A stretch of DNA of 36,740 nt from the NCBI GenBank assembly GCA_964590835.1, contig CAZPYD010000001.1:1-36740 (forward strand), written 5' to 3'. The notes under the pieces were generated by a model. It searched no databases. It had not been told where the DNA came from and worked only from the letters and a program-made list of their open reading frames with translations. This stretch comes from an uncultured Candidatus Saccharibacteria bacterium. Lineage in GTDB: Bacteria > Patescibacteriota > Minisyncoccia > JAHISW01 > Tagabacteraceae. Positions 1,227 through 36,740 of the stretch are shown here, one piece after another. A program made the position numbers and the translations under genes. How positions within the stretch are numbered: the stretch's first letter is position 1; the number at the start of each line of letters is the position of its first letter.

Positions 1227-2393
1227 TTATATCTTCCCTGTTTTTATTTTCTCGCGGATTTGGGCCACGTAGTTGCTAAAAAAGTGTAGGTTGTGGAAAG
1301 TAAGCAAGCTCATGGCGTTTATCTCGCCTGCTTTGAATAAATGGCAAACATAATTGCGACCGTAGTTTTGGCACACAAAGCAGTCGCACTTACTATCTAG
1401 TGGTTTTTTGTCTTTTAAGAATTTGGTCTGGCGCATATTTATTCTTCCCTTATTTGTATAAGCGAGGCCTCTGCGCGCATGGTGTGTTGGTACTATACAG
1501 TCAAAAGTATCTACTCCGTTTTTGATAATAAATTCCATATCTTCTAGGTAGCCTATTCCCAAGAGATGTCTTGGTTTGCTTTCGTCTAGGTTATCAAAAG
1601 ACCAGTTTAAAATTTCTTGGGTTTCTCGCTTGTTTGTTCCCATATCGCCGCCTATCCCAAATCCATCAAAAGGAAGCGAGTTAATAAACTTGGCGCTTTC
1701 CATTCGCAAATCTTTAAAGCACGAGCCTTGCACAATTCCATATAATGCCTGGTCGGGGTTCTTTTTCTTAGCTTTTATGCATATTTCTGCCCATTTATGA
1801 GTTCTTTCTAGGGACTTTTTCATATATTCTTTGTTTGCAAGTGGTGAGGTGCATTCGTCAAAGGCAAAAATAATATCAGCACCTATTTTCTCTTGGATTT
1901 TTATAGATTCTTTTGGGCCTAAAAAAATCTTGTCACCATTTATGGGTGAGCGAAACCAGACACCTTTATCAGTAATCTTAATAGACTTTGGCTGCTGCCC
2001 CTTCTTTATTTTTTTCTCAACTATCGAGGTTGGACCTCGATAGTTGGAGTTGGGTTTTAGGATTTTGCCTACTCCCAGGTCTTGGCCAAACCCCAAGCTA
2101 AATACCTGAAAGCCACCAGAGTCTGTCATGGTTGGCTTGTCCCAGTTCATAAACTTGTGTATTCCGCCTGATTTTTTTAGCACATTTTCACCCGGCTTAA
2201 GGTGCAAATGAAAGGTGTTAGAGATAAGTAGCTGGCTGCCGGTTTTTTTAACTAGCTCTGTCGGCAAAGCCTTAATGGTGGCCTGCGTAGCCACAGGCAC
2301 AAAAGCCGGTGTGCGTACAACACCGTGTGAGGTTTTGAGAAGACCCAGTCTGGCCTTACTCTTCTTTGATTTCTTTAAAATTTTGAATTCCAT
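1227..2393 (-). CDS. tgt: tRNA-guanine transglycosylase
   Basis: Motifs ARLG..T.HG...TPAF.PVAT, NTFHL, TDSGGFQVFSL, FDEC, GIVQG, RHLLGIG, DTFDC..PT, Zn site CDCFVC...H, HNL. Confidence 0.97.
   Translation of the reverse strand: MEFKILKKSKKSKARLGLLKTSHGVVRTPAFVPVATQATIKALPTELVKKTGSQLLISNTFHLHLKPGENVLKKSGGIHKFMNWDKPTMTDSGGFQVFSLGFGQDLGVGKILKPNSNYRGPTSIVEKKIKKGQQPKSIKITDKGVWFRSPINGDKIFLGPKESIKIQEKIGADIIFAFDECTSPLANKEYMKKSLERTHKWAEICIKAKKKNPDQALYGIVQGSCFKDLRMESAKFINSLPFDGFGIGGDMGTNKRETQEILNWSFDNLDESKPRHLLGIGYLEDMEFIIKNGVDTFDCIVPTHHARRGLAYTNKGRINMRQTKFLKDKKPLDSKCDCFVCQNYGRNYVCHLFKAGEINAMSLLTFHNLHFFSNYVAQIREKIKTGKI
2018..2046. repeat. Perfect REP-like hairpin inside tgt (encodes NYRGPTSIV)
   Basis: CAACTATCGAGGT-TGG-ACCTCGATAGTTG, 13-bp perfect stem; core GAGGTCCAACCTC shared with 32615-32637. 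Confidence 0.85.
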
Positions 2394-14460: not shown

Positions 14461-14504
14461 AATTATATTATAGCAAAAGAATTAATATGGTAAAATAAAG
14501 TATA

Positions 14505-18169: not shown

Positions 18170-18178
18170 AATATCAAT

Positions 18179-20050: not shown

Positions 20051-20148
20051 ATCAATAAAATAGTTTAATATACAAATTAAACTTAACTGTAATTTGAAAA
20101 CAAAACCCTAAATCAATTAAGGATTAATCAGCTAAAAGGAGACTGGAA

Positions 20149-20646: not shown

Positions 20647-20656
20647 AACAAAAAAC

Positions 20657-20700
20657 AAAAGTGTATAGAGCTATGCGGTCGCATAAACCTATACACTTTT
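20657..20700. terminator. Bidirectional terminator
   Basis: AAAAGTGTATAG...TATGCG GT CGCATA...CTATACACTTTT. Confidence 0.75.
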
Positions 20701-20709
20701 TTATTTTGT

Positions 20710-21720: not shown

Positions 21721-21728
21721 ATTTACAG

Positions 21729-22505: not shown

Positions 22506-22525
22506 AGATTTAAATTTTCTTCCGC

Positions 22526-22566
22526 AAGCAAAACCTCAATTCCAACTATTTTATGAGGTTTTGCTT
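22526..22566 (-). terminator. Hairpin downstream of serS
   Basis: AAGCAAAACCTCA...TGAGGTTTTGCTT 13-bp stem. Confidence 0.55.
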
Positions 22567-22584
22567 ACAAAAGAACAAATTCCA

Positions 22585-22823
22585 AACCCAATCCGCCATA
22601 ACTCCATTTTCGAACTCTGCGGAAAGGATTAGAACCTGCCTGCCGGCAGGCAGGAATTAAAGAGTGTAGTAGAAAAACTCATCCTGTTTAAGCTTTTCTA
22701 GCTACTTTAAAAAATATGATAAAAGACAGGAAGGTGAGATATGGGTTTTTCGTTAAGCGGAACGACTATAATTTTCAATTCTTGGATGCAATGAGAGAAA
22801 AGGGAGTTATAGCGGTTTGGGTT
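22585..22823. repeat. ~220-bp foldback element, copy 2, with 20-bp insertion
   Basis: Colinear with 197-417; terminal IR AACCCAATCCGCCATAACTCC / GGAGTTATAGCGGTTTGGGTT. Confidence 0.9.
22635..22654. repeat. Perfect 20-bp palindrome inserted in copy 2
   Basis: CCTGCCTGCCGGCAGGCAGG, absent at the equivalent site of copy 1. Confidence 0.9.
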
Positions 22824-22831
22824 AGAAGGTT

Positions 22832-24109
22832 TTAACCTTGAATCTTTTTTGAGATCACCTCTTTACCAATATATTTTTGAAGAACTTCTGGCACTTCTAT
22901 AGAACCATCTGCTTTTTGATAGTTTTCTATAAAAGAGATTAAAATGCGAGGTGTGGCAATAACAGTATTATTTAAAGAGTGCACAAAATAGATTTTACCT
23001 TCTTTCGTTTTATAACGAGTATTAAGCCTTCTTGTTTGAAAATCATGAAAGTAAGAAGCTGAATGAGTTTCACCATATTTTTCTTTAGAAGGTATCCAGG
23101 CCTCTATGTCATATTTTTTGACTTGTCCTTGTCCTAAATCACCCCCACAATTAACTACAACCCTAAATGGGATACCTAGTTTTCTCATTATCTTTTCAGA
23201 ATTGTTTGTAATTTCTTCATGCCATTTTACAGATTCCATGTGATCGGCTTTACATAATACGATTTGCTCCACCTTCATAAACTCATGAAGTCTGTATAAG
23301 CCTTTTGTATCTTTTCCGTGACTTCCAGCTTCCCTTCTAAAACAAGGAGAAATAGGAACATATTTTTTAGGCAATTCATCTTCAGATAACATCTCATCAG
23401 AATGATAACCCATCATGGGGACTTCGGCTGTACCCGCTAAATAAAGATCGTCTTGGGTGTGATAAACCTCGTCCTTGCCCTGTGGCAGCCATCCTGTACC
23501 ACGAAAACTATCTTCTCTTGTCATAGAAGGAGCAAGAAAAGGAGTAAACCCAGCCTTCACCATTTCCTCAAAGCAAAACTGCCAAATAGCAAATGTAAGA
23601 AGAGCGCCTTCGTTTTTAAGAAAATAACCACGAAATCCAGACACTTTTGTTCCTCTTTCAAAATCAGCCAAATCCAAATCTTTCATTAGTTCAATATGAC
23701 CCTTTGGCTCAAAATCAAACTCTGGCAATTCTCCCCATTTTCTTATTTCCTGATTATCTAAATCAGATTCACCTTCTGGTACAGAATGATCTGGAATATT
23801 TGGAACTTCTAACATCAAGGCCTCCCACTTTTTCTGAGCTTCTTTTAGCTCCAACTCTTTTTTAGAAAGACCGTCTTTTAGCTGTTTCATTTCATTAATC
23901 ATCTCTTGCCTTTCTTCATTATCTTCCATTTTAGAAATACGTTCAGTTTGTACATTCTGCTCTGCGCGCAAAGTTTCCACCTCGCCGATTAACTTGCGTC
24001 GAATATCATCAATATCTAAAAGATTATCCACATTAAATTTAATGTGTTTTTTGTGTGCCGCCTGCTTAATCAGCTCTTTATTTTCTCGTATAAAATTTAT
24101 ATCTAACAT
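22832..24109 (-). CDS. serS: Serine--tRNA ligase
   Basis: MLDI.FIREN, coiled arm, YLAGTAEVP, CFRREAG, RLHEF.KVEQ, KYDIEAW, HSLNNT..ATPR. Confidence 0.98.
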   Translation of the reverse strand: MLDINFIRENKELIKQAAHKKHIKFNVDNLLDIDDIRRKLIGEVETLRAEQNVQTERISKMEDNEERQEMINEMKQLKDGLSKKELELKEAQKKWEALMLEVPNIPDHSVPEGESDLDNQEIRKWGELPEFDFEPKGHIELMKDLDLADFERGTKVSGFRGYFLKNEGALLTFAIWQFCFEEMVKAGFTPFLAPSMTREDSFRGTGWLPQGKDEVYHTQDDLYLAGTAEVPMMGYHSDEMLSEDELPKKYVPISPCFRREAGSHGKDTKGLYRLHEFMKVEQIVLCKADHMESVKWHEEITNNSEKIMRKLGIPFRVVVNCGGDLGQGQVKKYDIEAWIPSKEKYGETHSASYFHDFQTRRLNTRYKTKEGKIYFVHSLNNTVIATPRILISFIENYQKADGSIEVPEVLQKYIGKEVISKKIQG

Positions 24110-24351
24110 CTTTAAATAATACCAAAATCCCCATTTTTTGCAAAACCCGGTAGTACAATTTCAAATTAAATACTACCGGGCAAAAGAGCAAAACAAAAAC
24201 CGCCCTGCACACGCAAGGCGGTTTGATATTTTACTATCTTCGAGTCATTACATCACCAGCCTAAGGCTGATGGCACCACTCACAAAAAGACCAATCACAC
24301 AAAAAAATGGTTTTACGAGCAAAATCTCTTGCCATTTTATTATCTCCTCTT

Positions 24352-24522
24352 TCATATCTTAAGTTTTGTTATATCGACTTCTTTTGGAGAACCATCTGGA
24401 TTAAACCCAAGCTCCATTTGAGCTTCAAATGTATCGACATTAATAACTTTTTTGTGATATTTTATTTTTCTTCTTCTTTTCCTTCTTTTTTTTCTTCTTT
24501 TTAAAGACAAATAGAATCCCAT
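24352..24522 (-). CDS. Small basic hypothetical protein (56 aa, start ATG 24522)
   Basis: AAGGAG SD-like, promoter TTGACT-17-TATTTT at 24580-24608; poly-K/R N-terminus. Confidence 0.55.
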   Translation of the reverse strand: MGFYLSLKRRKKRRKRRRKIKYHKKVINVDTFEAQMELGFNPDGSPKEVDITKLKI

Positions 24523-24605
24523 TGTCCTTCTCCTTCCCGCCAAAGGCGGATAAATTTCAAGGTTAATATTTCTAAATAAAAAATAATACAAAAACTTATT
24601 CTAGT

Positions 24606-24632
24606 CAAACGCCTCACCTGGTGAGGTGTTTG
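24606..24632. repeat. REP-like hairpin of a different family next to the transposase
   Basis: CAAACGCCTCAC-CTG-GTGAGGTGTTTG. Confidence 0.7.
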
Positions 24633-24650
24633 GATTTTGGTGACGATATC

Positions 24651-24687
24651 AATTATTTACTCGAAGCGACGCTTCGAGTAAATAATT
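24651..24687. repeat. REP hairpin abutting the transposase stop codon
   Basis: AATTATTTACTCGAAGC-GAC-GCTTCGAGTAAATAATT, perfect 17-bp stem. Confidence 0.93.
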
Positions 24688-25386
24688 TTAAATAAGTAGG
24701 TTTATTTTTCCCCTATCTACCTCCGACCAATTTTTTAAAAAAAACTCATAATCTTTTCCATTTTTAAATTGATCGGTAATTATTTTTATTCCCGATAGTA
24801 TCCAATCATCATAATCACTATATAAAAAACTTTTCAAGCTAGACCATGGGTATTTTAACAACTCCCTCTTTTTTTGATTCCAGTTTTTTAAATTTCCGGT
24901 TCTCCAGTCTTTGCTATCAAGAAAATCTAAAGGATTTAAATGAATATACAAAGAAAGATGAAGTAAATACTGATTTGAATCGATATGTTTTGCTTTAAAA
25001 GGCCCATCAAATAGCGGACCTTTTCTACCTTTTTTTATATTTACGTATTTGGAAATCGAAGTATTGCATTTTTGCAAAAACTCAGAAATACCTCCTTCTC
25101 TTAATTCTTTTAATAAAAGGTGGTAATGGTCGGGCATAATCGCATAAGCAATTACATCAACAAGCTTATCTCCATTCCATGCAATTTCTGCGCTTCTTGC
25201 AAGAGTAGCTTTGTTATAAACCCTTAAATAATCAAAGGCTTTTGTAGATTCTGTTGAATTTGCCAATAGGAAACAATTTGCAAGTTTTTGTGCATTTTCA
25301 AAGTCATCAAATTCTGGGAGGCTTAAGATAATCCTACTATAAACATGATAATATTCTCCTGGGAAAAACGTTTCTTTTCTTTGCAT
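24688..25386 (-). mobile_element. REP-associated tyrosine transposase (RAYT, Y1 HUH family)
   Basis: YYHVYSR, HUH motif AYAIMPDHYHLLL, G.LF.GPFKAK, catalytic YIHLNP, YPWSS; identical REPs on both sides. Confidence 0.92.
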
Positions 25387-25395
25387 AATATATTT

Positions 25396-25426
25396 ATTTT
25401 ACTCGAAGCGACGCTTCGAGTAAAAT
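25396..25426. repeat. REP hairpin just upstream of the transposase start
   Basis: ATTTTACTCGAAGC-GAC-GCTTCGAGTAAAAT; 27-bp core identical to 24651-24687, same orientation. Confidence 0.93.
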
Positions 25427-25431
25427 CGTTT

Positions 25432-25460
25432 TTGACAGCACGGGGACAACAAATTAAAAT
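25432..25460 (+). promoter_or_regulatory. sigma70 promoter of dprA (leaderless geometry)
   Basis: TTGACA-17 nt-TAAAAT, 7 nt before ATG 25468. Confidence 0.8.
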
Positions 25461-25467
25461 ATACTTA

Positions 25468-26523
25468 ATGAAGGATGAAGAAAAAATTTTTGCCAATGCT
25501 TTAAATCAAGCTCCTCAATTGGGACCTGTTAGCTTGGGTAATCTCAAAAAATATTTTGGCAGCTTTAAGAAAGCCTGGTCTGCCTCTTTTGATAAGCTGC
25601 AAAAAGTTAGCGGCGCGAGAGACCTTTTTGAATTTAGACAAAACATAGATCCTGAAAAAAAAATTGAAAAACTTCAAAAAGAAAATATAAAAATATTATT
25701 AAAAGAAGAGTTGCCTTATTTTTTACAAGAGATTTATACCCCGCCAGAAATTTTATATGTAAAAGGTGAATTACCAAATGAAAATTTGAATCATCTAGCA
25801 GTGGTTGGTCCACGAAAATTCTCTACTTATGGCAAAGAGGCTTGCCAAAAAATAATAAATGGGTTAAAAGAACATAATGTGGTAATAGTAAGTGGCTTGG
25901 CTGCAGGTATAGATACCATCGCCCATATTGCCGCACTTGAAAATAACTTACAAACAATTGCTGTTTTGGGACACGGTCTAGATCCCCGAGTTTTATTCCC
26001 GCAAGACAACATGCAGCTTGCTGACAAAATAACAAAAAACGGATGTGTAATTTCTGAATATAGTTATTCTACAAGGGCTACAAAGTTTACTTTTCCGCAA
26101 AGAAACAGAATAGCCGCAGGTCTGTCGCAAGGCACTTTGGTAATAGAAGCGCCAGAAAGAAGCGGATCTTTAATTACCGCCACCATGGCTCTTGAAAGCA
26201 ATCGTGAAGTATTTGCAGTTCCGAATAATATTTTTTCAAAAAATTCCGAAGGAACAAATAAATTATTAAAAGAAGGGGCTGTGCCTGTGACAGAACCAGA
26301 AGACATTCTTAAAACTTTTGGAATAGATATTGAATCCAAACCCCAAAATATTGTTTTAAGTGAAACAGAGCAAAAAATAATTTCTTTTCTTGATGAGCCA
26401 ATAGAAAGAGACGAGCTGATAAGAAAATCCGGCATGCAGCCTCAAGAAATTAATCCACAATTAATACAAATGCAAATAAAAGGTATTATAAAGGAGATAG
26501 ATGGTAAAATTTATCAAGTTTAA
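25468..26523 (+). CDS. dprA: DNA-processing protein DprA (start corrected to 25468)
   Basis: LAVVGPRK.STYG, IVSGLAAGIDTIAH, FPQRNRIAAGLS, EAPERSGSLITA, REVFAVP, C-terminal winged helix. Confidence 0.96.
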   Translation: MKDEEKIFANALNQAPQLGPVSLGNLKKYFGSFKKAWSASFDKLQKVSGARDLFEFRQNIDPEKKIEKLQKENIKILLKEELPYFLQEIYTPPEILYVKGELPNENLNHLAVVGPRKFSTYGKEACQKIINGLKEHNVVIVSGLAAGIDTIAHIAALENNLQTIAVLGHGLDPRVLFPQDNMQLADKITKNGCVISEYSYSTRATKFTFPQRNRIAAGLSQGTLVIEAPERSGSLITATMALESNREVFAVPNNIFSKNSEGTNKLLKEGAVPVTEPEDILKTFGIDIESKPQNIVLSETEQKIISFLDEPIERDELIRKSGMQPQEINPQLIQMQIKGIIKEIDGKIYQV

Positions 26524-26532
26524 TGAAAACAA

Positions 26533-26624
26533 TGCGATACCAATATACGAATGCATGCTAATAATACTAATACTTAAATTCGTATCTATTAGTATCATTA
26601 GTAAAATTAGTATATTAGTATCGA
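26533..26624. repeat. ATACTAAT-unit foldback repeat, copy A (upstream of topA)
   Basis: ATACNAAT units then ATTNGTAT units; reverse-complement match to 30026-30151. Confidence 0.8.
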
Positions 26625-26637
26625 GTAATTAGTTAAT

Positions 26638-28755
26638 ATGAATTTAGTTATCGTAGAGTCACCAACAAAAGCCAAAACAATCCAACGCTTTCTTGGAGAT
26701 GATTTTCAAATTGAATCTAGCTTTGGGCATATGCGAGATTTACCCAAAGGAGATTTGGGTATTGATACGGAAGGTAATTTTGAGCCTCGCTATGTTATCC
26801 CGAAGAAATCACAAAAAAAAGTTACAGCACTAAAAAAGATAGCTCAAAAAGCAGATAAAATTATACTAGCAACCGATGAAGACCGTGAAGGAGAAGCCAT
26901 TGCCTGGCATCTTATCCATGCCCTTAAACTAAAAGAAGATGGAAACAAAGATAAAAAAATAGAGCGTATTGTTTTTCATGAAATTACAAAAGGCGCGATA
27001 AAAGAGGCTCTTAAAAATCCTCGCGAGGTAGATATGGATCTTGTGGATGCGCAACAAGCCCGCAGAATACTAGATAGGCTTGTGGGCTACAAGCTATCCC
27101 CTTTCTTGTGGAAAAAACTAATGCGAGGACTTTCTGCTGGACGCGTACAATCTGTAGCCCTTCGCCTAATTGTTGACCGTGAAAACGAAATTCGGGCATT
27201 TAAGCCAGATGACTACTGGACTATTTCTGCCACCTTCGATTCTCCAAAAGATGAACTTTATTCTGATTTAGTAAAAATAAACGACAAGACCATCCCTAAA
27301 CCAGGCATAATGGATAAAAATGAAGTAGATAAAATAATTAAAGAATCTCAAAAAGGCAAATGGAAAATAGAATCTATCGTAAAAAAGGAAAGGAAACAAC
27401 ATCCTAAGCCACCATTTACAACCAGCTCGTTACAGCAAGAGTCTTGGCAAAAACTAAGATTTTCAGCCAAAAAAACAATGATGATAGCGCAACAGCTATA
27501 CGAAGGTATAAACCTAAAAAAAGAAGGTGGTGCAACCGGTCTTATTACCTACATGAGAACAGACTCATTAAATGTATCGGAGAGTGCTTTAAAATCTGCA
27601 AACAGTTATCTAATAAGTAACTTAGGAGAAAAATACAGTCTAGCTCAACCTCGTCGCTTTAAGACTAAATCTAAAGGCGCACAGGAGGCTCACGAAGCTA
27701 TCAGACCATCTAAGCCGGAATTATCTCCTGAATCAATCAAGAGCGAACTTAAAACAGATCAATACAAACTATATAGCCTGATTTGGAAAAGGTTTATGGC
27801 CAGCCAAATGCCAGAAGCTATCTTTGATAACACTACCGTAAACATAAATGTAGCTCATGAAAAAAATAATTATTTATATCGCGCAAAAGGTTCTATTCTA
27901 AAATTCGATGGTTTCTTAAAAATTTATGAAATGGCAGTAGAAGAAAAGACTTTACCAGATCTTTCTGAAAAAGATAAGGTGGCAGCAAAAGAAATAAAAT
28001 CCGAAGCACATCAAACTCAACCACCAGCGCGATACAATGATGCTTCCATAGTTAAAACTCTAGAAAAGCACGAGATTGGTAGACCCTCTACTTATGCGCA
28101 AATTATTTCTACTATCTTGGCGCGCAATTATATAGAAAAAGACGAAGCAAAAAGATTTATACCAACAGAAATTGGTGAAAAAGTTAATACTATTTTAGTT
28201 GAACATTTTCCTCAAATAGTGGATATAAACTTTACAGCCAAAATGGAAGATGATCTTGATAAAATTGCAGAAGGTAAAGCAGAATATCCACCAATAATAA
28301 AAGATTTTTATGAACCGTTTGAAAAGAATCTTGAAGAAAAATACGAGACAGTAGAAAAAGAAGACTTAACAGAAGAAACAGACGAGGTTTGCGAAAAATG
28401 TGGCAAACCAATGGTTATCAAACACGGCCGCTTTGGCAAGTTTATAGCTTGCACTGGATTCCCGGATTGTAAAACAACAAAACAGCTTCCCGCTAAATCT
28501 TTAGGTATCAAATGCCCGCTTTGTAAGACAAGCTTGCCCGCCAAAACCTCAACAAAGGAGGGCGATGTGATTGAGAGAAAAACTAAAAAAGGTAGAATGT
28601 TTTATGGCTGCTCTGAGTGGCCAAAATGTAAATTTGCCACATGGCAAAAGCCCACTGGCGAACTATGTCCTGACTGTCAGTCCCCCACAGTAGAACTCAA
28701 AAATAGTATCAAGTGCTCCAATAAAACCTGCACTTATAAAGTAGAAAAAGAATAA
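26638..28755 (+). CDS. topA: DNA topoisomerase I
   Basis: LVIVESPTKAKTI, ATDEDREGEAI, SAGRVQS, ITYMRTDS, GRPSTYA, C-terminal Zn ribbons. Confidence 0.98.
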   Translation: MNLVIVESPTKAKTIQRFLGDDFQIESSFGHMRDLPKGDLGIDTEGNFEPRYVIPKKSQKKVTALKKIAQKADKIILATDEDREGEAIAWHLIHALKLKEDGNKDKKIERIVFHEITKGAIKEALKNPREVDMDLVDAQQARRILDRLVGYKLSPFLWKKLMRGLSAGRVQSVALRLIVDRENEIRAFKPDDYWTISATFDSPKDELYSDLVKINDKTIPKPGIMDKNEVDKIIKESQKGKWKIESIVKKERKQHPKPPFTTSSLQQESWQKLRFSAKKTMMIAQQLYEGINLKKEGGATGLITYMRTDSLNVSESALKSANSYLISNLGEKYSLAQPRRFKTKSKGAQEAHEAIRPSKPELSPESIKSELKTDQYKLYSLIWKRFMASQMPEAIFDNTTVNINVAHEKNNYLYRAKGSILKFDGFLKIYEMAVEEKTLPDLSEKDKVAAKEIKSEAHQTQPPARYNDASIVKTLEKHEIGRPSTYAQIISTILARNYIEKDEAKRFIPTEIGEKVNTILVEHFPQIVDINFTAKMEDDLDKIAEGKAEYPPIIKDFYEPFEKNLEEKYETVEKEDLTEETDEVCEKCGKPMVIKHGRFGKFIACTGFPDCKTTKQLPAKSLGIKCPLCKTSLPAKTSTKEGDVIERKTKKGRMFYGCSEWPKCKFATWQKPTGELCPDCQSPTVELKNSIKCSNKTCTYKVEKE

Positions 28756-28774
28756 TAAAAAACTTATTTAAAAA

Positions 28775-30022
28775 CTAGAACATACTAAAAAAATCTGTCT
28801 CTTCGTCGTCTTCTTTCTCTTCTTTTTTCATGTCTTCTGGTTCAGGAGTTGATTTAATTGGTCCTGAGTTTAGCCCGTCATCATGTTTATCGTTTTCTTT
28901 TTCAGTATCGGCAACTATTTGCTCAAACTCAAGTTCTCGCTTAGGTTCTTCTGCTGGATCTTCAGGAATAACTGGTTCAGCTTTTGGTGTAGTATCTTCA
29001 TTAAACTCTACTGTTTTGATAATTTCCTCCGCTTCTTCTTGAAGAGAAGGGGAACTTTCTGGAGTGCAAGTAGTACAACTGGCAAGTCTTATTTCAGGAT
29101 TAGAGTTTGAGATAGATTCTGGCTCCTCATGAGAACAAGTCTCGCATGGTTCTTCCTCTTTTTCGCTACAAGCAACTGCTTCATTCATAGCACCAACTTT
29201 TGCTAAAAAAGCTGCAAACTGATCCTCTGAATCAAACTCAAAAGAAATCTTTTTAGCTGGTCCTTTCTTTTGTACAGAAACTTTTGTTCCCAAAACATTT
29301 GATAATTTTTGTTGAAGTGCTTCAGCCTCTGGATCAACCTGGAGAGGTTTTACTCTTGGAGTTTTGTAGCTTTGAACAATCTCACGAGCCATTTTTTCAG
29401 CATCACGCACAGTCATCTTGGTCATAACAATATCCTTGTAAAGATTCATTTGCTCGTCTTTTTGTTTTTTTAAACTCAAAAGTGGTCTAGTGTGACCTTC
29501 ATTAATAAGACCTTGCCTTAGTCCATCTTTTATTTCGTCTGGTAAGCCCAATAAACGCAATGAATTAGAAACAAACACTCGACTCTTGCCCATCTTAGCC
29601 CCAACCTCATGGTGCCGCATTTTAAAATTATCAATAAGCTGAGCAAAAGCTTCTGCTCTTTCAATTGGGCCCAAGTCTTCTCGTTGCAAATTTTCGATAA
29701 GAGCAAGTTCTAATTTTACTTGTTCTGAAGGATCTTCACGAATAATTACCGGTACTTGCATCAATCCCGCCATTTTAGAGGCTCGCCACCTTCTTTCTCC
29801 GGCAATAAGTTCGTATTCTACCACCGTACCAGTTGGAATATCTTTTTCGTGACGAATAACAATCATTGGCTGCAAAACGCCATATTGCCTAATAGAATCA
29901 GAAAGCTGTTTTAGATGTTCCTCGTTAAATTCACGACGAGGTTGCATTGTGTTGGGTCTAATTTTTTCAACCTCAACAGTAAAAACACCACTTTCTTTTC
30001 TTATTCTTGGTAGATCATTCAT
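28775..30022 (-). CDS. parB: ParB/Spo0J partition protein with long acidic C-terminal tail (start ATG 30022)
   Basis: QPRREF, SIRQYGVLQP, YELIAGERRWRA, LIENLQREDL, HTH GKSR..VSN.LRLL.LP, GH.R.LL. Confidence 0.93.
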   Translation of the reverse strand: MNDLPRIRKESGVFTVEVEKIRPNTMQPRREFNEEHLKQLSDSIRQYGVLQPMIVIRHEKDIPTGTVVEYELIAGERRWRASKMAGLMQVPVIIREDPSEQVKLELALIENLQREDLGPIERAEAFAQLIDNFKMRHHEVGAKMGKSRVFVSNSLRLLGLPDEIKDGLRQGLINEGHTRPLLSLKKQKDEQMNLYKDIVMTKMTVRDAEKMAREIVQSYKTPRVKPLQVDPEAEALQQKLSNVLGTKVSVQKKGPAKKISFEFDSEDQFAAFLAKVGAMNEAVACSEKEEEPCETCSHEEPESISNSNPEIRLASCTTCTPESSPSLQEEAEEIIKTVEFNEDTTPKAEPVIPEDPAEEPKRELEFEQIVADTEKENDKHDDGLNSGPIKSTPEPEDMKKEEKEDDEETDFFSMF

Positions 30023-30025
30023 AAA

Positions 30026-30151
30026 TCGATGCAAATATACTAATTAATACTAATGATACTAATTAAACTGACGCCGAATATACTAATTAACACCAATGAT
30101 ACTAATAATTAAATTCGTATAATTAGTATGCATTAGTATATTGGTATCGCA
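30026..30151. repeat. ATACTAAT-unit foldback repeat, copy B (upstream of parB)
   Basis: Inverted homolog of 26533-26624 with an internal ~29-bp duplication (30035-30063 vs 30078-30106). Confidence 0.8.
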
Positions 30152-30221
30152 CTAACTTTATTATATCTAAATTGACTATCTTGCGCAAATTCACTAATAT
30201 TATAGTATCAAACAAAATATT

Positions 30222-30303
30222 GCCGTCGTGGCGGAATTGGCATACGCGCACGACTCAAAATCGTGTGAGGCAACTCATGTGGGTTCGACTCCCACCGACG
30301 GCA
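30222..30303 (+). tRNA. tRNA-Leu (anticodon CAA), CCA not encoded
   Basis: Acceptor GCCGTCG/CGACGGC, anticodon arm CACGA-CTCAAAA-TCGTG, variable arm TGAG-GCAA-CTCA, GTTCGAC T-loop. Confidence 0.97.
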
Positions 30304-30405
30304 CAAATAAATTAAGCCTCCTTCAGGATGGCTTTATTTTTTTGTGCCGTCTCCCTTCCTCTTTACTTCTCCACCATTCCATGCTTTAGTGGACATAGAA
30401 GAGTT

Positions 30406-30448
30406 TTTTAACATACAAACTCCGCCGAGCGGGGTAAAAAGGAGGTTT
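30406..30448 (+). promoter_or_regulatory. 43-nt leader module, copy 2
   Basis: TTTTAACATACAAACTCCGCCGAGCGGGGTAAAAAGGAGGTTT. Confidence 0.8.
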
Positions 30449-30453
30449 TTAAG

Positions 30454-30761
30454 ATGGGACTTTTTACTAGAGAACAAAACACTGGAACTATTGCCCTTTT
30501 TTCTTTTATTTTGCTTGTTTTTTCATTATGTTTCTTTATTGGTTATTCAAATAAAAATAATTCAATTCCAGTAATCAAAGAAAAAACCAAAGTCTTGTAA
30601 ACAAAATTACTGCTCGAAAAATCTATTATAAAGATCCCCGAGGCGAAAACTTATGTTTTTCTTATCAAGCCAGTGGAACAAGTATTGGCGAAACCTATAT
30701 CCCTTGTTCGGAAATACCAACAAATCTAATTGTTGTTGCAGAGTTACCTAAAAAGAAATAA
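30454..30761 (+). pseudogene. ~102-aa single-TM hypothetical gene frameshifted at or near an A6 tract (30581-30586); not in ORF track
   Basis: AGGAGG plus ATG 30454 gives MGLFTREQNTGTIALFSFILLVFSLCFFIGY... stop 30600; adding one A continues NQSLVNKITARKIYYKDPRGENLCFSY...IPCSEIP...KKK to TAA 30761. Confidence 0.6.
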
Positions 30762-30773
30762 GTAAGCCAATTT

Positions 30774-31004
30774 ATGGAATATAGCTATTTGGATTATTTA
30801 ATTGGCGGATTTTTATTGATTAGTTTTATTTTTATGATTTTTAAAATGGGTCACTGCTCCAAATGCGGCTTTTTTGCGATTAAACGTACTGTGCTAGCCT
30901 TTTCACATGGAGGCACAAAAAAATATAAAGACACATATTTACGCTGCCCGTACTGCAAACACGACGAAAAAATAAAAACAAAAGAAATTACTCCTTTTTT
31001 ATAA
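30774..31004 (+). CDS. Small TM plus zinc-ribbon protein
   Basis: N-terminal TM, CSKC and CPYC. Confidence 0.7.
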   Translation: MEYSYLDYLIGGFLLISFIFMIFKMGHCSKCGFFAIKRTVLAFSHGGTKKYKDTYLRCPYCKHDEKIKTKEITPFL

Positions 31005-31021
31005 TTATTAAACCCAAACAC

Positions 31022-31050
31022 AAAACCCAAGGCGCCAGCCTTGGGTTTTT
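31022..31050. terminator. Bidirectional terminator
   Basis: AAAACCCAAGGC-GCCA-GCCTTGGGTTTT. Confidence 0.8.
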
Positions 31051-31054
31051 ATTT

Positions 31055-31402
31055 TTATACTTCTTTTGCTTCACTTCGATCAATAGAGAAATCATTGGGA
31101 TCAAAGTAGCGACCTCCTGTACCTGTGACAACATCCAAAAGTATCTCATATAATCTGGTATCTTTTTCATAAGCGGCATCCAAAAGATTATCAGATCGAA
31201 CACTATACGGAGCAACTTTTTCAAATTCTTCTGGGGTCATCCCTTCTGTATCTATTTTCATTACTTTTCTGCTTGTCGTATAAATAACAGACCGCACTTT
31301 TCTAGATGCAACCTGAACTTTTAATCCAATTAACTCTTCAAGCTCTTTTCTTACACTATCAAATGCCGGAATATCCGGAACTCCTGTTATTTCTATAATC
31401 AT
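31055..31402 (-). CDS. Hypothetical 115-aa protein
   Basis: GAGGAGG SD; promoter TTTACA-17-TAGATT at 31443-31471. Confidence 0.75.
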   Translation of the reverse strand: MIIEITGVPDIPAFDSVRKELEELIGLKVQVASRKVRSVIYTTSRKVMKIDTEGMTPEEFEKVAPYSVRSDNLLDAAYEKDTRLYEILLDVVTGTGGRYFDPNDFSIDRSEAKEV

Positions 31403-31508
31403 ATCGCCTCCTCTTTTTTTTCAATTTATTCTTTCTTTTAATAATCTACAATAAAACCAGGAAATTGTAAATTGCTTAGTCTTGTGGTATTGTAATGCCA
31501 TAAATAAT

Positions 31509-33617
31509 ATGAGGTATTTTATTTTTACATACGGTTGTGCCACTAATCATGCTGATTCTGAAAGGATTGCGCGCAAGCTAGATATGGATGGGTATGAACA
31601 ATCTTCTTCTGAAAAAGAAGCTGATTTGATAGTGCTTAATGCCTGTTCTGTAAGAAAATCTGCAATGGATAGAGTGTTTAGCAAGGCACATAAATATAAG
31701 AAAAACCCAAATAAAAAAGTTATTCTATGCGGTTGCGTACTAGACAATGAAAAGAAAAAATTTGAAGAAAAGGTGGACGAAATCTGGCACCCAGACGAAT
31801 ATTTTGATTTGGCTCCTGCTTATTCCAGCGAATTTACTGCATATATTCCTATCACCAAAGGCTGTGATAATTTTTGTTCATACTGTGCTGTGCCTTTTAC
31901 TCGCGGCCGCGAAAAATCTCACCCAGCAGGACAAATAGTTAAAGAAGTGAAAACTTTGATTAAAAATGGATATAAAGAAATTTGGCTACTTGGTCAAAAT
32001 GTAAACTCATATAATTCTCGTGGAATAGACTTTCCAGGTCTGCTTAAAAAAATAAACCAGCTTGAAGGCAAATTCTGGATACGCTTTACTTCCCCACATC
32101 CAAAAGACTTTTCAAACGAATTAATAAAAATAATCAAAACTTGCAACAAAGTTACTAAATATATCAACCTACCTGTTCAATCCGGCAACAACGAAATTCT
32201 TAAGAAAATGAATCGTCGCTACACCCGCGAACAATACATAAAACTAGTGAACAGAGTAAGAAAACAAATCCCAGATATATCTTTGTCTACTGATACTATC
32301 GTTGGTTTCCCAGGAGAAACAAGGAAGCATTTTTTAAACAGCATAGATTTGTATAAGCAGCTTAAATTTGATATGGCATTTATTTCTCAATACTCTCCGC
32401 GCCCAGGGACACTTTCTGCCACAACAATGAAAGACAATATCCCAAAAACAGAAAAAGTAAGACGAGACACACAACTAACAAATGTCCTTAAAAAAACAGC
32501 TTTGGAAAATAACAAAAAGCTAGTTGGGCAAACAGTGGAAGTTTTGATTGATAGCAAAACGGACAATAAATTATTGGGCCGTACAAACACCAACAAACTC
32601 ACCGAAATCCCTTCTGTTGGAGGTCCAACCTCCAACATTGGGAGGTTTGTTGAGGTGAAGATTGTTAAGGCTGAGCCATGGAAGCTGATTGGTGAATTGG
32701 CCCCTCAGAAGATAATTGCTGTTTTGGGGCCAACATCTTCTGGGAAGAGTGACTTAGCTGTGTTGATAGCGCAAAAATTTGGCAACATGGAAATAATTTC
32801 TGCTGACTCTAGACAGGTATACAAAAACATCCCTATCGGCACAGGTGCGGTAACCAAAAAAGAAATGGGCGGCATTAATCACCACTTGCTTAATTTTGTT
32901 AATCCTAAAAAAGTCTACACAGGAGGAGACTTTAAGAAAGATGCCGAGAAAGCTATTGATGAAATAATAGCAAAAAATAAACTACCGATTGTTTGCGGTG
33001 GTACTGGCTTTTATATAGATATACTCCTAAGTGGCAAAAATATACCGCAAGTAGAACCAGACTGGACACTACGTAAAAAACTAGATAAAAAAACCGCAGA
33101 AGAATTATTTAAAATTCTCAAAAAACTAAACTCTACTCGCGCCAAAAACATAGATCCAAAAAACAAACGCCGCCTTATCCGCGCAATAGAAATCGCAAAA
33201 CACACAAAAAATAAATTAGCATCGAAGCGAGGCTTCGACGCTAAGAGGAGATATGAGGTTTTGTATTTAGGGATTAAGCGAGACGAAAAAGAACTAAAAA
33301 AACTTATCGAAAAGCGCATTAAAAAAATGCTCCAGGTGGGCCTAATAAAAGAAGTAAAAGATCTAAAAGCCTCTGGTGTAAGCTGGAAAAGGATAAACGA
33401 ACTGGGGTTTGAATACAAATACCCTGTGCAATTTATCCGTGGAGAAATAACCAAGGAAGAAATGATAGAGCGAATGCTCATAGAAAACTATCAGTACGCC
33501 AAACGCCAAATGACCTGGTTTAAAAAGTATGCACCAGAAACTCATTGGGTAAAAAGAAAAAAAGCGGTCAGCATCGACGGCCAACCAGTTTTAAAACTCG
33601 TCAAAAAGTTTTTGTAA
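31509..33617 (+). CDS. miaB-miaA: Fused MiaB (radical-SAM methylthiotransferase) and MiaA (tRNA dimethylallyltransferase)
   Basis: MiaB: TYGC..N..DSE, NACSVR, GCDNFCSYC, LLGQNVNSY, IVGFPGET, YSPRPGT, TRAM; in frame into MiaA: GPTSSGKS, ISADSRQVY, GGTGFY, RR.IRAIE, YAKRQMTWFK. Confidence 0.93.
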   Translation: MRYFIFTYGCATNHADSERIARKLDMDGYEQSSSEKEADLIVLNACSVRKSAMDRVFSKAHKYKKNPNKKVILCGCVLDNEKKKFEEKVDEIWHPDEYFDLAPAYSSEFTAYIPITKGCDNFCSYCAVPFTRGREKSHPAGQIVKEVKTLIKNGYKEIWLLGQNVNSYNSRGIDFPGLLKKINQLEGKFWIRFTSPHPKDFSNELIKIIKTCNKVTKYINLPVQSGNNEILKKMNRRYTREQYIKLVNRVRKQIPDISLSTDTIVGFPGETRKHFLNSIDLYKQLKFDMAFISQYSPRPGTLSATTMKDNIPKTEKVRRDTQLTNVLKKTALENNKKLVGQTVEVLIDSKTDNKLLGRTNTNKLTEIPSVGGPTSNIGRFVEVKIVKAEPWKLIGELAPQKIIAVLGPTSSGKSDLAVLIAQKFGNMEIISADSRQVYKNIPIGTGAVTKKEMGGINHHLLNFVNPKKVYTGGDFKKDAEKAIDEIIAKNKLPIVCGGTGFYIDILLSGKNIPQVEPDWTLRKKLDKKTAEELFKILKKLNSTRAKNIDPKNKRRLIRAIEIAKHTKNKLASKRGFDAKRRYEVLYLGIKRDEKELKKLIEKRIKKMLQVGLIKEVKDLKASGVSWKRINELGFEYKYPVQFIRGEITKEEMIERMLIENYQYAKRQMTWFKKYAPETHWVKRKKAVSIDGQPVLKLVKKFL
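32615..32637. repeat. Perfect REP-like hairpin in the MiaB TRAM domain (VGGPTSN)
   Basis: TGTTGGAGGT-CCA-ACCTCCAACA. Confidence 0.85.
33216..33244. repeat. Copy of the transposase-flanking REP inside the MiaA domain (LASKRGFDAK)
   Basis: TTAGCATCGAAGC-GAG-GCTTCGACGCTAA; core TCGAAGC-GAN-GCTTCGA matches 24651 and 25396. Confidence 0.85.
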
Positions 33618-33619
33618 AT

Positions 33620-34744
33620 TTAACTATTATTCGTCACAAAATCTTCTACTGCACGCATAGTCTGAAAAGCCTGAGTCTTTTTGTCTTGGCCGTTGTTAAA
33701 ATATTGATTAAAATCAGCTTCGCCAATAAATGCAGTGGCTCGCTTGAGGTCTTTGGATGCTTGAATAAATAAATCTGCAGAATCTTTTATTTCATTTACT
33801 CTCCCCTCAAAACCTACTGGAGTCCTATTTACTCGCAAATCTTCTGCCTTTTCATAAACCTCACTTAACAAAACTTCTGCATTGTCTATATAAGAAAAAG
33901 CTGCAACATCATTTGATTTGTTTATTTCATCAATGGCAGAATTGAGATAAGTATTACTCTTTTTAAGCATGCTCACATATACCCCCACCTCGTTTACAAA
34001 CTTAGCAAGCTGCTCTTGCTGAGCTTTTAATTCCAACTCTCTTGCTCTTCTCTGCTCTTCTTCTATTTGAGCCTGGTTTTGGGTTATTTGCTCTTGAGAT
34101 GTTTTCAATAATTCTTTTGTAGAATTTAAAGCTTGTTCTGTTTGATTCTTTTGAGAAACTGTCTGTTGAAGCTGAGACTCTACAGTACTTTTTTCTCTTT
34201 CTACTCGACTCTTGGCCTGTTCTACTGATTTTATATTTTGCTTAAGACCAGAGATTTCGTTAGCTATTTCTTTTTCAGAAGAATCCACAAGCTGGCTAGC
34301 CTGCCTATATAGCTCGAGTGCTTCATTATAAAATTTAAACTCTTGGTCAAAAACAAACTCACTACTATTAAGTAAAACCTCCACACTAAACCAATCTTCT
34401 TTTTCAGCAGCTTCAAAAGCCTTTAAGTAACTTTCTTCAGCAAACAAAAACCCTCGGGTTCTATCTACCTGTGATGCGATATCTATATTTTCCGGATTTG
34501 TTTCTTTTAATTTATTATACAAAACCAAGGCAGCTGTATAGTTACCCCCTTCTAATTCTGTGCTGGCTGTTTTTTCCATTTTTTGAAAACTATATCTTTG
34601 AGCTAAGCCAGTAGCATATATAGCAATAGCAATAATAGCAACAAAAAGTACTATCATTACAACAACATCCTTTATGGGCCACCTATGACCTTCTTCTGTT
34701 GTTTCTTCAGCGGGTTTTATGTCGTTTATTTTTTCTATATCCAT
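33620..34744 (-). CDS. Single-TM coiled-coil protein with TPR-like segment
   Basis: N-terminal TM, GNY..AL..Y motif, long Q/E-rich heptad region. Confidence 0.75.
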   Translation of the reverse strand: MDIEKINDIKPAEETTEEGHRWPIKDVVVMIVLFVAIIAIAIYATGLAQRYSFQKMEKTASTELEGGNYTAALVLYNKLKETNPENIDIASQVDRTRGFLFAEESYLKAFEAAEKEDWFSVEVLLNSSEFVFDQEFKFYNEALELYRQASQLVDSSEKEIANEISGLKQNIKSVEQAKSRVEREKSTVESQLQQTVSQKNQTEQALNSTKELLKTSQEQITQNQAQIEEEQRRARELELKAQQEQLAKFVNEVGVYVSMLKKSNTYLNSAIDEINKSNDVAAFSYIDNAEVLLSEVYEKAEDLRVNRTPVGFEGRVNEIKDSADLFIQASKDLKRATAFIGEADFNQYFNNGQDKKTQAFQTMRAVEDFVTNNS

Positions 34745-34803
34745 ATTTCTATATCTTTATTATATCAAATATAGAAAAAACAAAAAACTAAACTGTGTAT
34801 AAA

Positions 34804-36090
34804 TTACTGTTGTGTAGCACTTTCACCAGCCAAACGACCGGTACTCCAGCATATTTGCAAATTATATCCGCCGGTTGGTCCATCTATATCAATTACCTCC
34901 CCGGCAAAATATAAATTATCTATTAGTTTTGACTTCATTGTATTAGGGTCTATCTCGCTTAGCTTAACTCCGCCAGATGTCACAATCGCCTTTCTATAGC
35001 CAGTTAGTTTTTTCACTCTTATCTCAAATTCTTTCATGAGGTGAACGAGTCTGTTTCTTTCTTCTTTAGTAATGTCGCTTACTTTTTTGGCAGAAGGAAT
35101 ACCTGAAAGCTCTATAACAAGAGGGATGAGTTTTTTAGGCAGTAGTTTATCTAAAATATTCCTGTACATTTTTTTACTCCCCTCTTCAAAATCTCGCTGA
35201 ATTCTTTTATCCAATTTTTCAAAACTAAGCGCTGGCTTAAAATCAATTTTTATTTTTATGGCGCCCGGAAAAGCTTTGCCGATGTTTTTACTCATATCTA
35301 AAATAATCGGCCCACTCATGCCGTCGGCAGTAAATAGAGCCTCACCAAACCTGGAGTCTATTTTTTTATCGTTTTTCCAAACACTAATTTCAACATTTTT
35401 TAGACTTAGCCCTTCAAGCTGCTTAGTCCAAAGCTTTTCTTCTGTAATAACTGGAGTCAGTGCCGGCGCAAGATCTTCTATGGTGTGCCCCATTTTCTTA
35501 GCCCAAACATAACCCTCGCCGGTAGAACCAGTAAATGAGTAAGATTTGCCACCTGTACATATTATGTATTTACCCGCCTTTATTTTCCGCCCATTTGCAA
35601 GAACAAGTTTTTCTATTTTGCCGTCTTTTTCACCTTGACCTTGCCCCGCCTGGCGGGGTAAAGCGGGGTAAACAAACCTTTTTACCTTGGCATCCAGCTC
35701 CAGGGCTACTTTATTTTTTTTCAAATATCTTTTTAGCGCATTTAAAACATGAAGTGAGTTATCACTCGCAGGGAAAACTCTATTCCCTCTTTCTGTTTTT
35801 GTTTTTACACTTCTTTCATTAAAAAATCTGATGGTCTCTTTTGGGCCAAATTTAAAAAATGACGACAAAAGAAATTTGCCGTTTTTGCCATAAACCTGGA
35901 CCATCTCTCGCACATCTTCTGTGTCGTTTGTAATATTGCAACGCCCTTTGCCTGTTAACAAAAGCTTGTTGCCAAGAGTATTGTTTTTTTCTATCAAAAC
36001 AACGCGCGCGCCAAGCTCAGCCGCTCTACCCGCGGCCATCAACCCGGCAGGTCCACCACCAATTACTGCTATGTCATAATCTTCGTTCAT
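34804..36090 (-). CDS. HI0933/BaiN-family FAD-dependent oxidoreductase
   Basis: IGGGPAGLMAA, KLLLTGKGRCNITN, GRVFP-like NRVFP, TGGKSY..TGSTGEGY, VTSGGV, AGEV.D.DGPTGGYNLQ. Confidence 0.95.
   Translation of the reverse strand: MNEDYDIAVIGGGPAGLMAAGRAAELGARVVLIEKNNTLGNKLLLTGKGRCNITNDTEDVREMVQVYGKNGKFLLSSFFKFGPKETIRFFNERSVKTKTERGNRVFPASDNSLHVLNALKRYLKKNKVALELDAKVKRFVYPALPRQAGQGQGEKDGKIEKLVLANGRKIKAGKYIICTGGKSYSFTGSTGEGYVWAKKMGHTIEDLAPALTPVITEEKLWTKQLEGLSLKNVEISVWKNDKKIDSRFGEALFTADGMSGPIILDMSKNIGKAFPGAIKIKIDFKPALSFEKLDKRIQRDFEEGSKKMYRNILDKLLPKKLIPLVIELSGIPSAKKVSDITKEERNRLVHLMKEFEIRVKKLTGYRKAIVTSGGVKLSEIDPNTMKSKLIDNLYFAGEVIDIDGPTGGYNLQICWSTGRLAGESATQQ
35641..35672. repeat. Palindromic in-frame insertion in the HI0933 gene (YPALPRQAGQG)
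   Basis: TTGCCCCGC-CTG-GCGGGGTAA plus a second GCGGGGTAAA. Confidence 0.7.
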
Positions 36091-36124
36091 ATCTTGTAAT
36101 TTAATAAATATATAAAAAGAAAAA

Positions 36125-36200
36125 AGGCGAGATATGTGTTTTTCGTTAAGCGGAACGACTATAATTTTCTATTCTTGGATGCAAAGAGAGAAAAGGGGGT
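36125..36200. repeat. Truncated copy 3 (right half) of the ~220-bp foldback element
   Basis: GAGATATGTGTTTTTCGTTAAGCGGAACGACTATAATTTTCTATTCTTGGATGCAAAGAGAGAAAAGGG matches copies 1 and 2. Confidence 0.88.
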
Positions 36201-36250
36201 TTGTGAGGTTGAAGGAGTTTAAGTTTGTTTATTTTAATAACACCTAAATA

Positions 36251-36740
36251 TTATACCTCTCCTTGGCGCTTCACCCTAATTCTTTCTACCTCTGTAAGGT
36301 ATTTTTTGCGAAGGCGAACATTTTTAGGGGTTACTTCCAAATATTCGTCATCTGCCATAATCTCCAACCCGCTTTCGATAGTAATCGGAGTTGGCGGTGT
36401 TAGCGTGATATTTTCGTCAGAGCCACTCGCACGCATGTTTGTCAGCTGCTTACCTTTTGTGGGGTTTACTTTCATTTCTTCACCTTTAGCTGTATTCCCA
36501 ACCACCATACCTTCATATACTTCTGTGTTTGCACCAATATACAAAGTACCTCTAGTTTGTAAATTCGCCAAAGAAAACCCAAGGGCTTTCCCTGTAGCCA
36601 TAGATGTCATAGAGCCCACCTGGCGCTTTTTCACTTCACCAGCATAAGGTTTAAACCCAATTACTCTACTTGCAAAAATACCTTCACCTTTTGTATCTAC
36701 CACAAACTGTCCACGATAGCCCAAGAGTCCACGAGTAGGC
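36251..36740 (-). CDS. typA: Translational GTPase TypA/BipA, C-terminal part (gene starts outside window)
   Basis: VYEGMVVG, VNPTKGKQLTNMRASGSD, DDEYLEVTPKNVRLRK. Confidence 0.95.
   Translation of the reverse strand, partial: PTRGLLGYRGQFVVDTKGEGIFASRVIGFKPYAGEVKKRQVGSMTSMATGKALGFSLANLQTRGTLYIGANTEVYEGMVVGNTAKGEEMKVNPTKGKQLTNMRASGSDENITLTPPTPITIESGLEIMADDEYLEVTPKNVRLRKKYLTEVERIRVKRQGEV

Follow-up and report, generated by a model that had tools for sequence, protein, structure and literature searches.

The DNA analysed here (the window) comprises nucleotides 1-36,740 of a 62-kb contig from a bacterium of the candidate phyla radiation (CPR) whose genome amounts to 703 kb in 40 contigs, at about 35% guanine-cytosine (GC) content and 92% completeness, and our subject is a set of short palindromes inside its genes together with the local reversal from C-rich to G-rich composition that surrounds them. 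Two of these palindromes lie within a MiaB-MiaA fusion gene on the plus strand (31482..33617), a single open frame with the Pfam domains UPF0004, Radical_SAM and TRAM for MiaB and IPPT for MiaA. The miaB palindrome (32615..32637) is perfect, with a 10-bp stem and a 3-nt loop, and lies in frame in the TRAM domain, where it encodes SVGGPTSNI; it joins a GAGGT-type core to the outer stem of the GGAGT family. Its 5' flank (32570..32614) is C-rich and G-poor and specifies the conserved MiaB residues GRTNTNKLTEIP through C-ending codons, and its 3' flank (32638..32682) is G-rich and C-free and encodes IGRFVEVKIVKA through G-ending codons. The miaA palindrome (33222..33238; 7-bp stem, 3-nt loop; GAAGC family) is in frame in the MiaA part, encodes SKRGFD, and is followed by a G-rich, C-poor flank (33239..33283). 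The third lies in tgt (1227..2393, minus strand; Pfam TGT), the gene for queuine tRNA-ribosyltransferase: a perfect GAGGT-family palindrome (2018..2046; 13-bp stem, 3-nt loop), in frame and encoding SNYRGPTSIVE, whose left flank (1973..2017) is downstream and whose right flank (2047..2091) is upstream in the coding sense of tgt.

An initial annotation of the window had counted bases by hand beside these hairpins, and every count proved exact: 13 C and 2 G at 32581-32614 and 14 G and no C at 32638-32670 on the two sides of the miaB palindrome, all within one open frame as it had stated; 12 G and no C at 33245-33278 beside the miaA palindrome; no G at 1998-2017 and no C at 2047-2067 in tgt. It had called the hairpins REPs. 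All three are perfect palindromes, and the miaA hairpin belongs to a different family from the other two. Two further features of the fusion gene may be mentioned here. An alternative 7-bp hairpin (AACCTCC...GGAGGTT) at 32627-32647 overlaps the miaB palindrome in its right arm and extends into the 3' flank, and the arms of this hairpin resemble Shine-Dalgarno and anti-Shine-Dalgarno words. The fusion itself is suggested to be conserved, since six genomes of this family have, at the matching locus, open frames of 621-706 aa.

To summarize composition beside a palindrome we use the score S, the excess of C over G in the left 35 nt plus the excess of G over C in the right 35 nt; S3 is reported beside S for same-gene controls and orthologs, and paired scores are written S/S3. 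The miaA copy scores 13/9, and the miaB copy reaches S = 25, a value matched by none of 20,000 random sites.

A listing of perfect hairpins across the genome returned 892 with stems of at least 7 bp, and motif searches then defined families. The first of two main, related families has the core GAGGTnnnACCTC and 13 copies, the second the core GGAGTnnnACTCC and 8 copies; a third, with the core GAAGCnnnGCTTC, has about 8, the miaA hairpin among them. Palindromes range from 21 to 37 nt in length. Among the 21 main-family copies, 16 are in frame, by which we mean inside an open frame of at least 130 aa, and 5 of these 16 sit in two paralogous transposase genes; two in-frame assignments are doubtful, C8:12923 because it falls in a 135-aa frame whose family membership is unchecked and C13:19662 because it lies just upstream of the first ATG (here and below, C labels denote sequences of this genome and L labels individual loci compared). 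The host proteins are Tgt, MiaB, TruB, TsaD, a SpoU methylase, a peptidase U32, a NiFe-hydrogenase subunit, ComEC, two large surface-type proteins and two transposases. Within them the palindrome takes the place of part of a variable loop and adds no large block, Tgt being 6 aa longer there than its closest orthologs. TsaD contains a second in-frame palindrome, of a fourth family (C9:11786-11812, encoding SVGYPISNR, S = 16), a relative of one that adjoins a transposase homolog on C7; in many relatives the TsaD match is split near residues 78-112, the region of this second palindrome.

The transposases point to the nature of the repeats. We find four homologs of an IS200-like Y1 transposase in this genome, of which three pass the Pfam model Y1_Tnp (PF01797), and each of these three genes is bracketed by palindromes of a single family of its own, which is the arrangement of repetitive extragenic palindromic (REP) sequences and their REP-associated tyrosine transposases (RAYTs). 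On C13 the gene (18937-19635; 34.4 bits) lies between GGAGT-family copies at 18905-18931 and 19662-19690, and on C15 the gene (14137-14838; 31.8 bits) lies between GAGGT-family copies at 14095-14125 and 14875-14901, both scores being above the cut-off. The RAYT-like gene of the window (24688..25386, minus strand) scores 23.1 bits where the cut-off is 23 and lies between two long GAAGC-family palindromes, one adjoining it at 24651..24687 (17-bp stem, extragenic, S = -12) and one on its other side at 25396..25426 (14-bp stem, S = 0), and neither shows the flip described below. A motif resembling HUH, NHFH, is visible in the transposase translations, and RAYT homologs occur in 24 of 41 related genomes searched, with up to 9 matches in a relative. 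Judged by sequence and arrangement, the hairpins are REP-type palindromes, each family apparently served by its own RAYT. RAYT genes also contain in-frame copies of the palindrome family cognate to them, and these occupy two conserved internal sites (C13:18937-19635 and C15:14137-14838, corresponding to L102 and L103; L044, L055, L083, L092 and L180-L184). At internal site 1 the palindrome stands in for a segment of about 12 aa (approximately xPEWRERKIKNY) that is present in REP-less homologs, and palindromes inside RAYT genes may serve self-recognition or autoregulation.

The C-to-G flip that the initial annotation had described at REP hairpins holds across the genome. S is positive in 19 of the 21 main-family copies and negative in 2, with a mean of 9.48, against a mean of -0.03 and a standard deviation (sd) of 5.33 at the 20,000 random sites (z about 8.2; sign test p = 2e-4). 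All 16 in-frame copies are positive, with mean S and S3 of 12.8 and 7.4 against 0.0 and -0.1 in control windows of the same genes (sd 7.0 and 3.5), and for 9 of the 16 S3 falls within the top 5% of its own gene; the 11 copies in host genes other than transposases are likewise all positive (mean S 10.1). A metaplot, which the annotation had proposed as a check, displays the skew step: over 40 nt the values lie between -0.45 and -0.26 to the left of the palindrome and between +0.57 and +0.24 to its right, and zero is reached by 50-60 nt. Counted in codons, the plateau extends about 15 codons (about 45 nt) on each side and vanishes by about 20. Other hairpin classes have mean S between -0.45 and +1.5 and no flip, and 28 in-frame hairpins that are not REPs average 1.1, also without one. 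It is thus REP-type palindromes that go with the flip, and a general hairpin property was rejected as an explanation since the other classes average about zero.

Third codon positions carry most of this signal, positions 1 and 2 shifting less. Within 45 nt of the palindromes, position 3 is C in 30.4% and G in 8.3% of codons upstream, and G in 30.4% and C in 5.0% downstream, compared with 11.4% C and 15.6% G genome-wide (Fisher p = 8e-19 for the flip; skew about -0.57 upstream and +0.72 downstream). A and T flip as well, with A over T upstream and T over A downstream (p =.05). The pattern had been described as strand-symmetric, and so it is: upstream position 3 has A.34, C.30, G.08, T.27, and the complement of downstream position 3 has A.36, C.30, G.05, T.28. 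Among two-fold codons ending in a pyrimidine (NNY), the fraction of C is.24 in the genome,.54 upstream and.06 downstream, and among those ending in a purine (NNR), the fraction of G is.28,.19 and.53, respectively. At four-fold sites C gains from T upstream and G gains from A downstream, leaving the purine share about unchanged; the upstream purines (39 of 88) fit a share of.42 (p =.67) and not the.335 of an even replacement by C (p =.04). Position-3 GC is raised on both sides (.39 and.35 against.27). The changes are mainly transitions, with a bias toward A>G and C>T on whichever strand leads 3' away from the hairpin. Cytosine deamination alone, which the initial annotation had offered as an example of a cause, does not account for this, as the larger part is a gain of G from A (of C from T opposite), and the loss of C is smaller while T barely rises.

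We aligned six host genes with relatives' orthologs that lack a REP at the site, and in every one the composition beside the REP differs from that of the orthologs, contrary to what would be expected if the genes had simply had this composition all along. Scores in this genome and mean scores in REP-less orthologs are 25/15 and 1.7/1.2 for miaB (n = 12), 2/11 and -7.5/0.5 for tgt (n = 24), 11/11 and -4.1/-0.1 for tsaD (n = 25), 18/9 and 2.7/-0.7 for comEC (n = 15), 10/3 and 5.5/2.2 for truB (n = 4), and 11/4 and -1.5/0.5 for the U32 peptidase gene (n = 2), a mean excess of 13.4 in S and 8.2 in S3. Since the REP-less orthologs have no flip and the skew lies at silent sites, host-gene sequence near REPs has really been altered.

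The same host sites also bear palindromes in other genera, of different sequence: those of TsaD and ComEC in several genera each, those of TruB and of MiaA and MiaB in one other, and the Tgt loop in two others, and the SpoU methylase site has a palindrome in a metagenome contig too. The relatives' loci with palindromes in the loops of Tgt, TsaD, MiaB, MiaA, TruB, ComEC and the SpoU methylase are L004:805-829, L021:2298-2332, L114, L115, L119, L120, L136:2579-2607 and 3165-3189, L210, L238, L241, L243 and L082:9335-9361. The tgt palindrome of this genome is absent from its site in the Tgt genes of 29 relatives, 2 relatives having other palindromes in that loop. The shared loops could be either recurrent targets or old sites at which the palindrome has been updated to each genome's own family. 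Several of these REP-bearing genes have the flip (TsaD, L114, 14/11; ComEC, L238, 14/4, and L243, 17/10; TruB, L210, 20/10, with only 9 upstream codons aligned), and at RAYT internal site 1 the REP-bearing homologs have an S3 of about 8, compared with about 2 for a REP-less group that includes four degenerate REP rows (S3 8-13) and some rows that are not RAYTs. In one relative the copies in frame have S values of 6, 10, 28, 19 and 2, and the 7 in-frame copies of one metagenome-assembled genome, possibly not independent of the relatives searched, have S3 = 3, 5, 5, 8, 2, 3 and 3. Recurrence at in-gene REPs of related genomes is weaker than in this genome. A separate pattern search of 41 relatives returned unrelated palindromes with no consistent skew, using a pattern that was ill-suited to the purpose and matched just the miaB copy in this genome. 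Because the proteins at shared sites are 60-70% identical, silent sites should be saturated, so that a one-off property of the insertion site cannot explain a persistent skew and a continuing force is needed.

What has to be explained, then, is a flip that is specific to these REPs and strand-symmetric, consists mostly of transitions and occupies a defined tract; orthologs without the REP do not have it, whereas REP sites common to several genera still do. The explanation that we tentatively prefer, as plausible but well short of established, is a nick-driven mutational process running outward from long-lived in-gene REPs. REP copies would have been resident in frame within housekeeping genes for a long time, and a process proceeding from the palindrome 5'-to-3' on each strand would bias substitutions over a tract of about 45 nt, turning A into G and C into T on the strand 3' of the hairpin. 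On the plus strand this would leave a left flank rich in C and A and a right flank rich in G and T, like a miniature of the skew switch at a replication origin, and purifying selection would leave the bias visible mainly at silent codon positions. The most likely source would be repeated nicking at the foot of the hairpin, by the RAYT (an HUH/Y1 enzyme) or by a cruciform-cutting enzyme; after the nick, either short strand displacement could leave the 3' flank single-stranded, with its A and C open to deamination, or short-patch resynthesis of the 3' flank could introduce errors through G:T wobble. The combination of A>G and C>T is classically linked with single-strand exposure or G:T wobble errors. 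We infer both the mutational nature of the force and its source in nicking with resynthesis or exposure. With somewhat greater reserve, we suggest the more general possibility that RAYT-served palindromes act as miniature two-sided start points of strand exposure or resynthesis and so as strand-specific local mutators of host genes, each writing into silent sites an origin-like skew switch that reaches about 45 nt to either side.

Two other conceivable sources of a polar bias agree less well: stalling of the lagging-strand polymerase does not fit, as it would expose the 5' flank and affect one strand only, and pausing of RNA polymerase at the hairpin could account for the downstream half only. 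As for repair, endonuclease V (PF04493) had no match in any of 5 genomes of the family, and uracil-DNA glycosylase (UDG; PF03167) had none in this 92%-complete genome, which is no more than compatible with poor repair of deaminated bases.

Several observations weigh against a mutational footprint, and the main difficulty comes from extragenic copies. In a metagenome set of GAGGT-family palindromes (57 copies with enough flank, 44 unique), the 39 extragenic copies have a mean S of 0.56, with 19 positive and 17 negative; the 5 in-frame copies of that set score 23, 21, 11, 17 and -11, the last in a frame that is probably no gene. A further comparison within this genome gives mean S of 1.1 for 10 extragenic copies and 10.7 for 21 in-frame copies (p =.004), and 127 extragenic REP-like palindromes in other loci average 1.4. 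A mutator acting at the DNA level should mark unconstrained DNA at least equally, so the absence of the flip outside genes counts against a simple footprint. Age may offer a reconciliation: extragenic copies would be young and turning over, and in-gene copies, which are demonstrably old, would be retained because their loss would damage the gene. The in-frame evidence from other genomes is itself uneven. Some 48 in-frame palindromes outside this genome average just S = 3.9 and S3 = 1.6, relatives' in-frame REPs at L116 (-11/-4), at L021 (-10/0) and at RAYT internal site 2 have no flip, and the in-frame copies of two relatives score -8, -1, -4 and 1. Close to the hairpin the changes are not purely transitions, the position-3 purine share in the first five codons being.38 upstream and.71 downstream. 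Polarization by ortholog-consensus parsimony yielded 17 upstream and 10 downstream events, which are too few, and only the downstream ones lean in the predicted direction, by 7 to 1. Finally, UDG does not track the flip, being present in a relative with it and not found in a relative without it. The claim of the initial annotation that these elements locally mutagenize host genes therefore stands in part: a REP-centred force on silent sites is borne out, but mutation is not separated from selection, and extragenic copies lack the flip.

Selection is a serious rival to the mutational explanation, although we consider it less probable. It would favour C 5' of an in-gene REP, and G 3' of it, at the silent sites nearby, and the benefit could lie in the DNA, through control of hairpin or cruciform extrusion or of RAYT action in essential genes, or in the mRNA, through the handling of a strong hairpin during translation. 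The near-restriction of the flip to in-frame copies, in this genome as in the metagenome, speaks for selection, as do the rise of position-3 GC on both sides, the fairly sharp end of the plateau near 45 nt, and the slightly greater stability of native flanks compared with synonymous resamples (minimum free energy, mean z = -1.1). The 28 other in-frame hairpins without a flip speak against it, though these hairpins are weaker, and neither the probability of the hairpin nor pairing across the flanks differs from synonymous resamples (z about 0; about -0.07 for cross-flank RNA pairing). An extended, imperfect hairpin was rejected on the same grounds, in-register pairs numbering 180 against 193 ± 11 expected. 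A GC clamp or codon optimization gives no exchange of C and G between sides, and the latter was discarded as a candidate since C and G do swap sides; near-perfect strand symmetry and a bias toward transitions would be unexpected from selection at the level of translation; and the upstream C-richness would create sequence resembling a Rho-loading site within genes, as judged from what is generally known of rut sites.

It is improbable, in our judgement, that the flanks consist of templated patches or decayed copies of the palindrome arms, with G-rich pieces like the left arm on the right and C-rich pieces like the right arm on the left. Such patches would arise from template switching or slippage at the hairpin, or from the decay of neighbouring REP insertions. 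Words of the opposite arm are in excess over shuffled flanks (106 4-mers against 78 ± 10 and 32 5-mers against 18 ± 5; z about 3), the right flank of the miaB palindrome repeats GGAGGT-like words able to pair with the right arm (as in the hairpin at 32627-32647), and the outermost stem bases (CCAAC...GTTGG) already have the same polarity. The excess is modest, however, and its null model is mononucleotide shuffling. Flanks that encode conserved host residues and can be aligned with orthologs are not inserted DNA, and on this ground a longer inserted element was rejected as well. The change is moreover a general shift of position 3 over 45 nt and not a matter of a few words, and the palindrome is not extended in register. 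Given the small surplus of words resembling the arms, a templated component may still contribute.

A preference of REPs for inserting or surviving where a C-to-G flip already exists appears slightly more doubtful still. Such sites would be plentiful, about 3.7% of random sites reaching S of at least 10, and insertion sites are not random, the same host loops being struck repeatedly across lineages. Against this, all six genes lack the flip at the corresponding sites of REP-less orthologs, S3 is still raised in several lineages at sites shared by genera whose proteins are 60-70% identical, where silent sites should have lost any initial composition, and extragenic insertions of the same family show no such preference. 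Least credible of all is an artefact or chance, whether sequencing or assembly errors beside inverted repeats (after which Illumina errors do cluster) or host amino-acid composition (protein sequence alone is positive at some sites, REP-less homologs of RAYT site 1 having a mean S of 9.4), given that the flip is concentrated at position 3 with conserved residues kept, where errors would strike all codon positions equally, that contigs of four runs from two studies have 0 differences from the window across both hairpins of the miaB gene, and that the flip recurs in independently assembled genomes, stands at z of about 8 against random sites and is positive in 16 of 16 cases against same-gene controls. 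The contigs come from 4 of 8 DNA runs, compared over 17000-36740, and at the two hairpins of the fusion gene they are free of variants, gaps and joints; at a low coverage of about 5x the comparison is uninformative on polymorphism. Junctions of divergent genes were also rejected, the copies lying within single open frames.

Two further repeats of the genome were seen along the way. The palindrome CCTGCCTGccggCAGGCAGG occurs in the window at 22635-22654 and in at least 8 other places in the genome, and the 35 nt on either side are identical between its copies at C1:22635 and C1:62042, which suggests a duplicated segment. A motif approximating aaatttgtactaccgggca, with its complement, adjoins many unrelated small hairpins and resembles another repeat family (examples at C25:9253, C8:1072, C28:1412, C14:11368, C4:27105, C7:5961, C8:16638, C1:45984 and C1:53728).

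The closest known systems are REPs and REPINs with their RAYTs, which the elements described here resemble in being short palindromes with GC cores, in falling into several families, and in the bracketing of Y1_Tnp genes by their own family. They differ in being dispersed but few (8-13 copies per family) and mostly within genes, including the RAYT genes, while known REPs have many copies and are mostly extragenic; inspection of their sequences by eye showed no GTAG or CGTC tag, and the units have perfect two-fold symmetry. Rickettsia palindromic elements (RPEs), which are about 100-150 bp long and insert as a block, and intragenic REPs likewise place palindromic repeats in frame in functional-looking genes. 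RPEs are longer and add a peptide module, whereas here the palindromes occupy 21-37 nt, the net gain in length is small and the flanks align with the orthologous protein. The text of one article on the subject records REPs inside genes of several species and cites in-frame RPEs (PMC3733652). The word "skew" occurs 0 times in that text, from which the article's supplementary list of intragenic REPs is separate. Across the literature searched, supplementary files not included, nothing links REPs or RAYTs with local skew, and no REP or RAYT paper found there mentions "GC skew". REP/RAYT systems and intragenic REPs are known, and the strong effect on the flanks is previously undescribed in that literature.

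Two other phenomena offer partial parallels. In the GC-skew switch at replication origins and the gradient of the mitochondrial heavy strand, the strand leading 5'-to-3' outward becomes richer in G and T at the cost of C and A, mainly via A>G and C>T, and the flip may be compared with these by analogy. It differs in extending about 45 nt per side instead of kilobases to megabases, in being centred on a mobile palindrome, in being far stronger, and in occurring mainly within genes. Quasi-palindrome template switching is also hairpin-dependent and local, and under it the arms could stay perfectly complementary even where the core differs, as at the shared ComEC site, where the core is GAGGT/ACCTC in one genome and GAAGT/ACTTC in another. 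Such switching should make the palindrome grow in register, which is not observed, and a fixed polarity of C followed by G is not among its predictions.

REPs and RAYTs are widespread, and a strand-symmetric, tract-limited bias at silent sites would, if the mutational explanation is true, be the first genomic trace of RAYT action on DNA. From the skew of its flanks one could then read the frequency and the duration of processing at a REP site, and small domesticated mobile elements would be seen to reshape the codon usage and some amino acids of the essential genes around them. If selection is responsible instead, the flip would point to a previously unrecognized constraint acting on the silent sites that adjoin strong hairpins inside genes. 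In both cases the skew of the flanks is easily calculated for thousands of genomes, from the CPR and elsewhere, and it offers a handle for bench tests.

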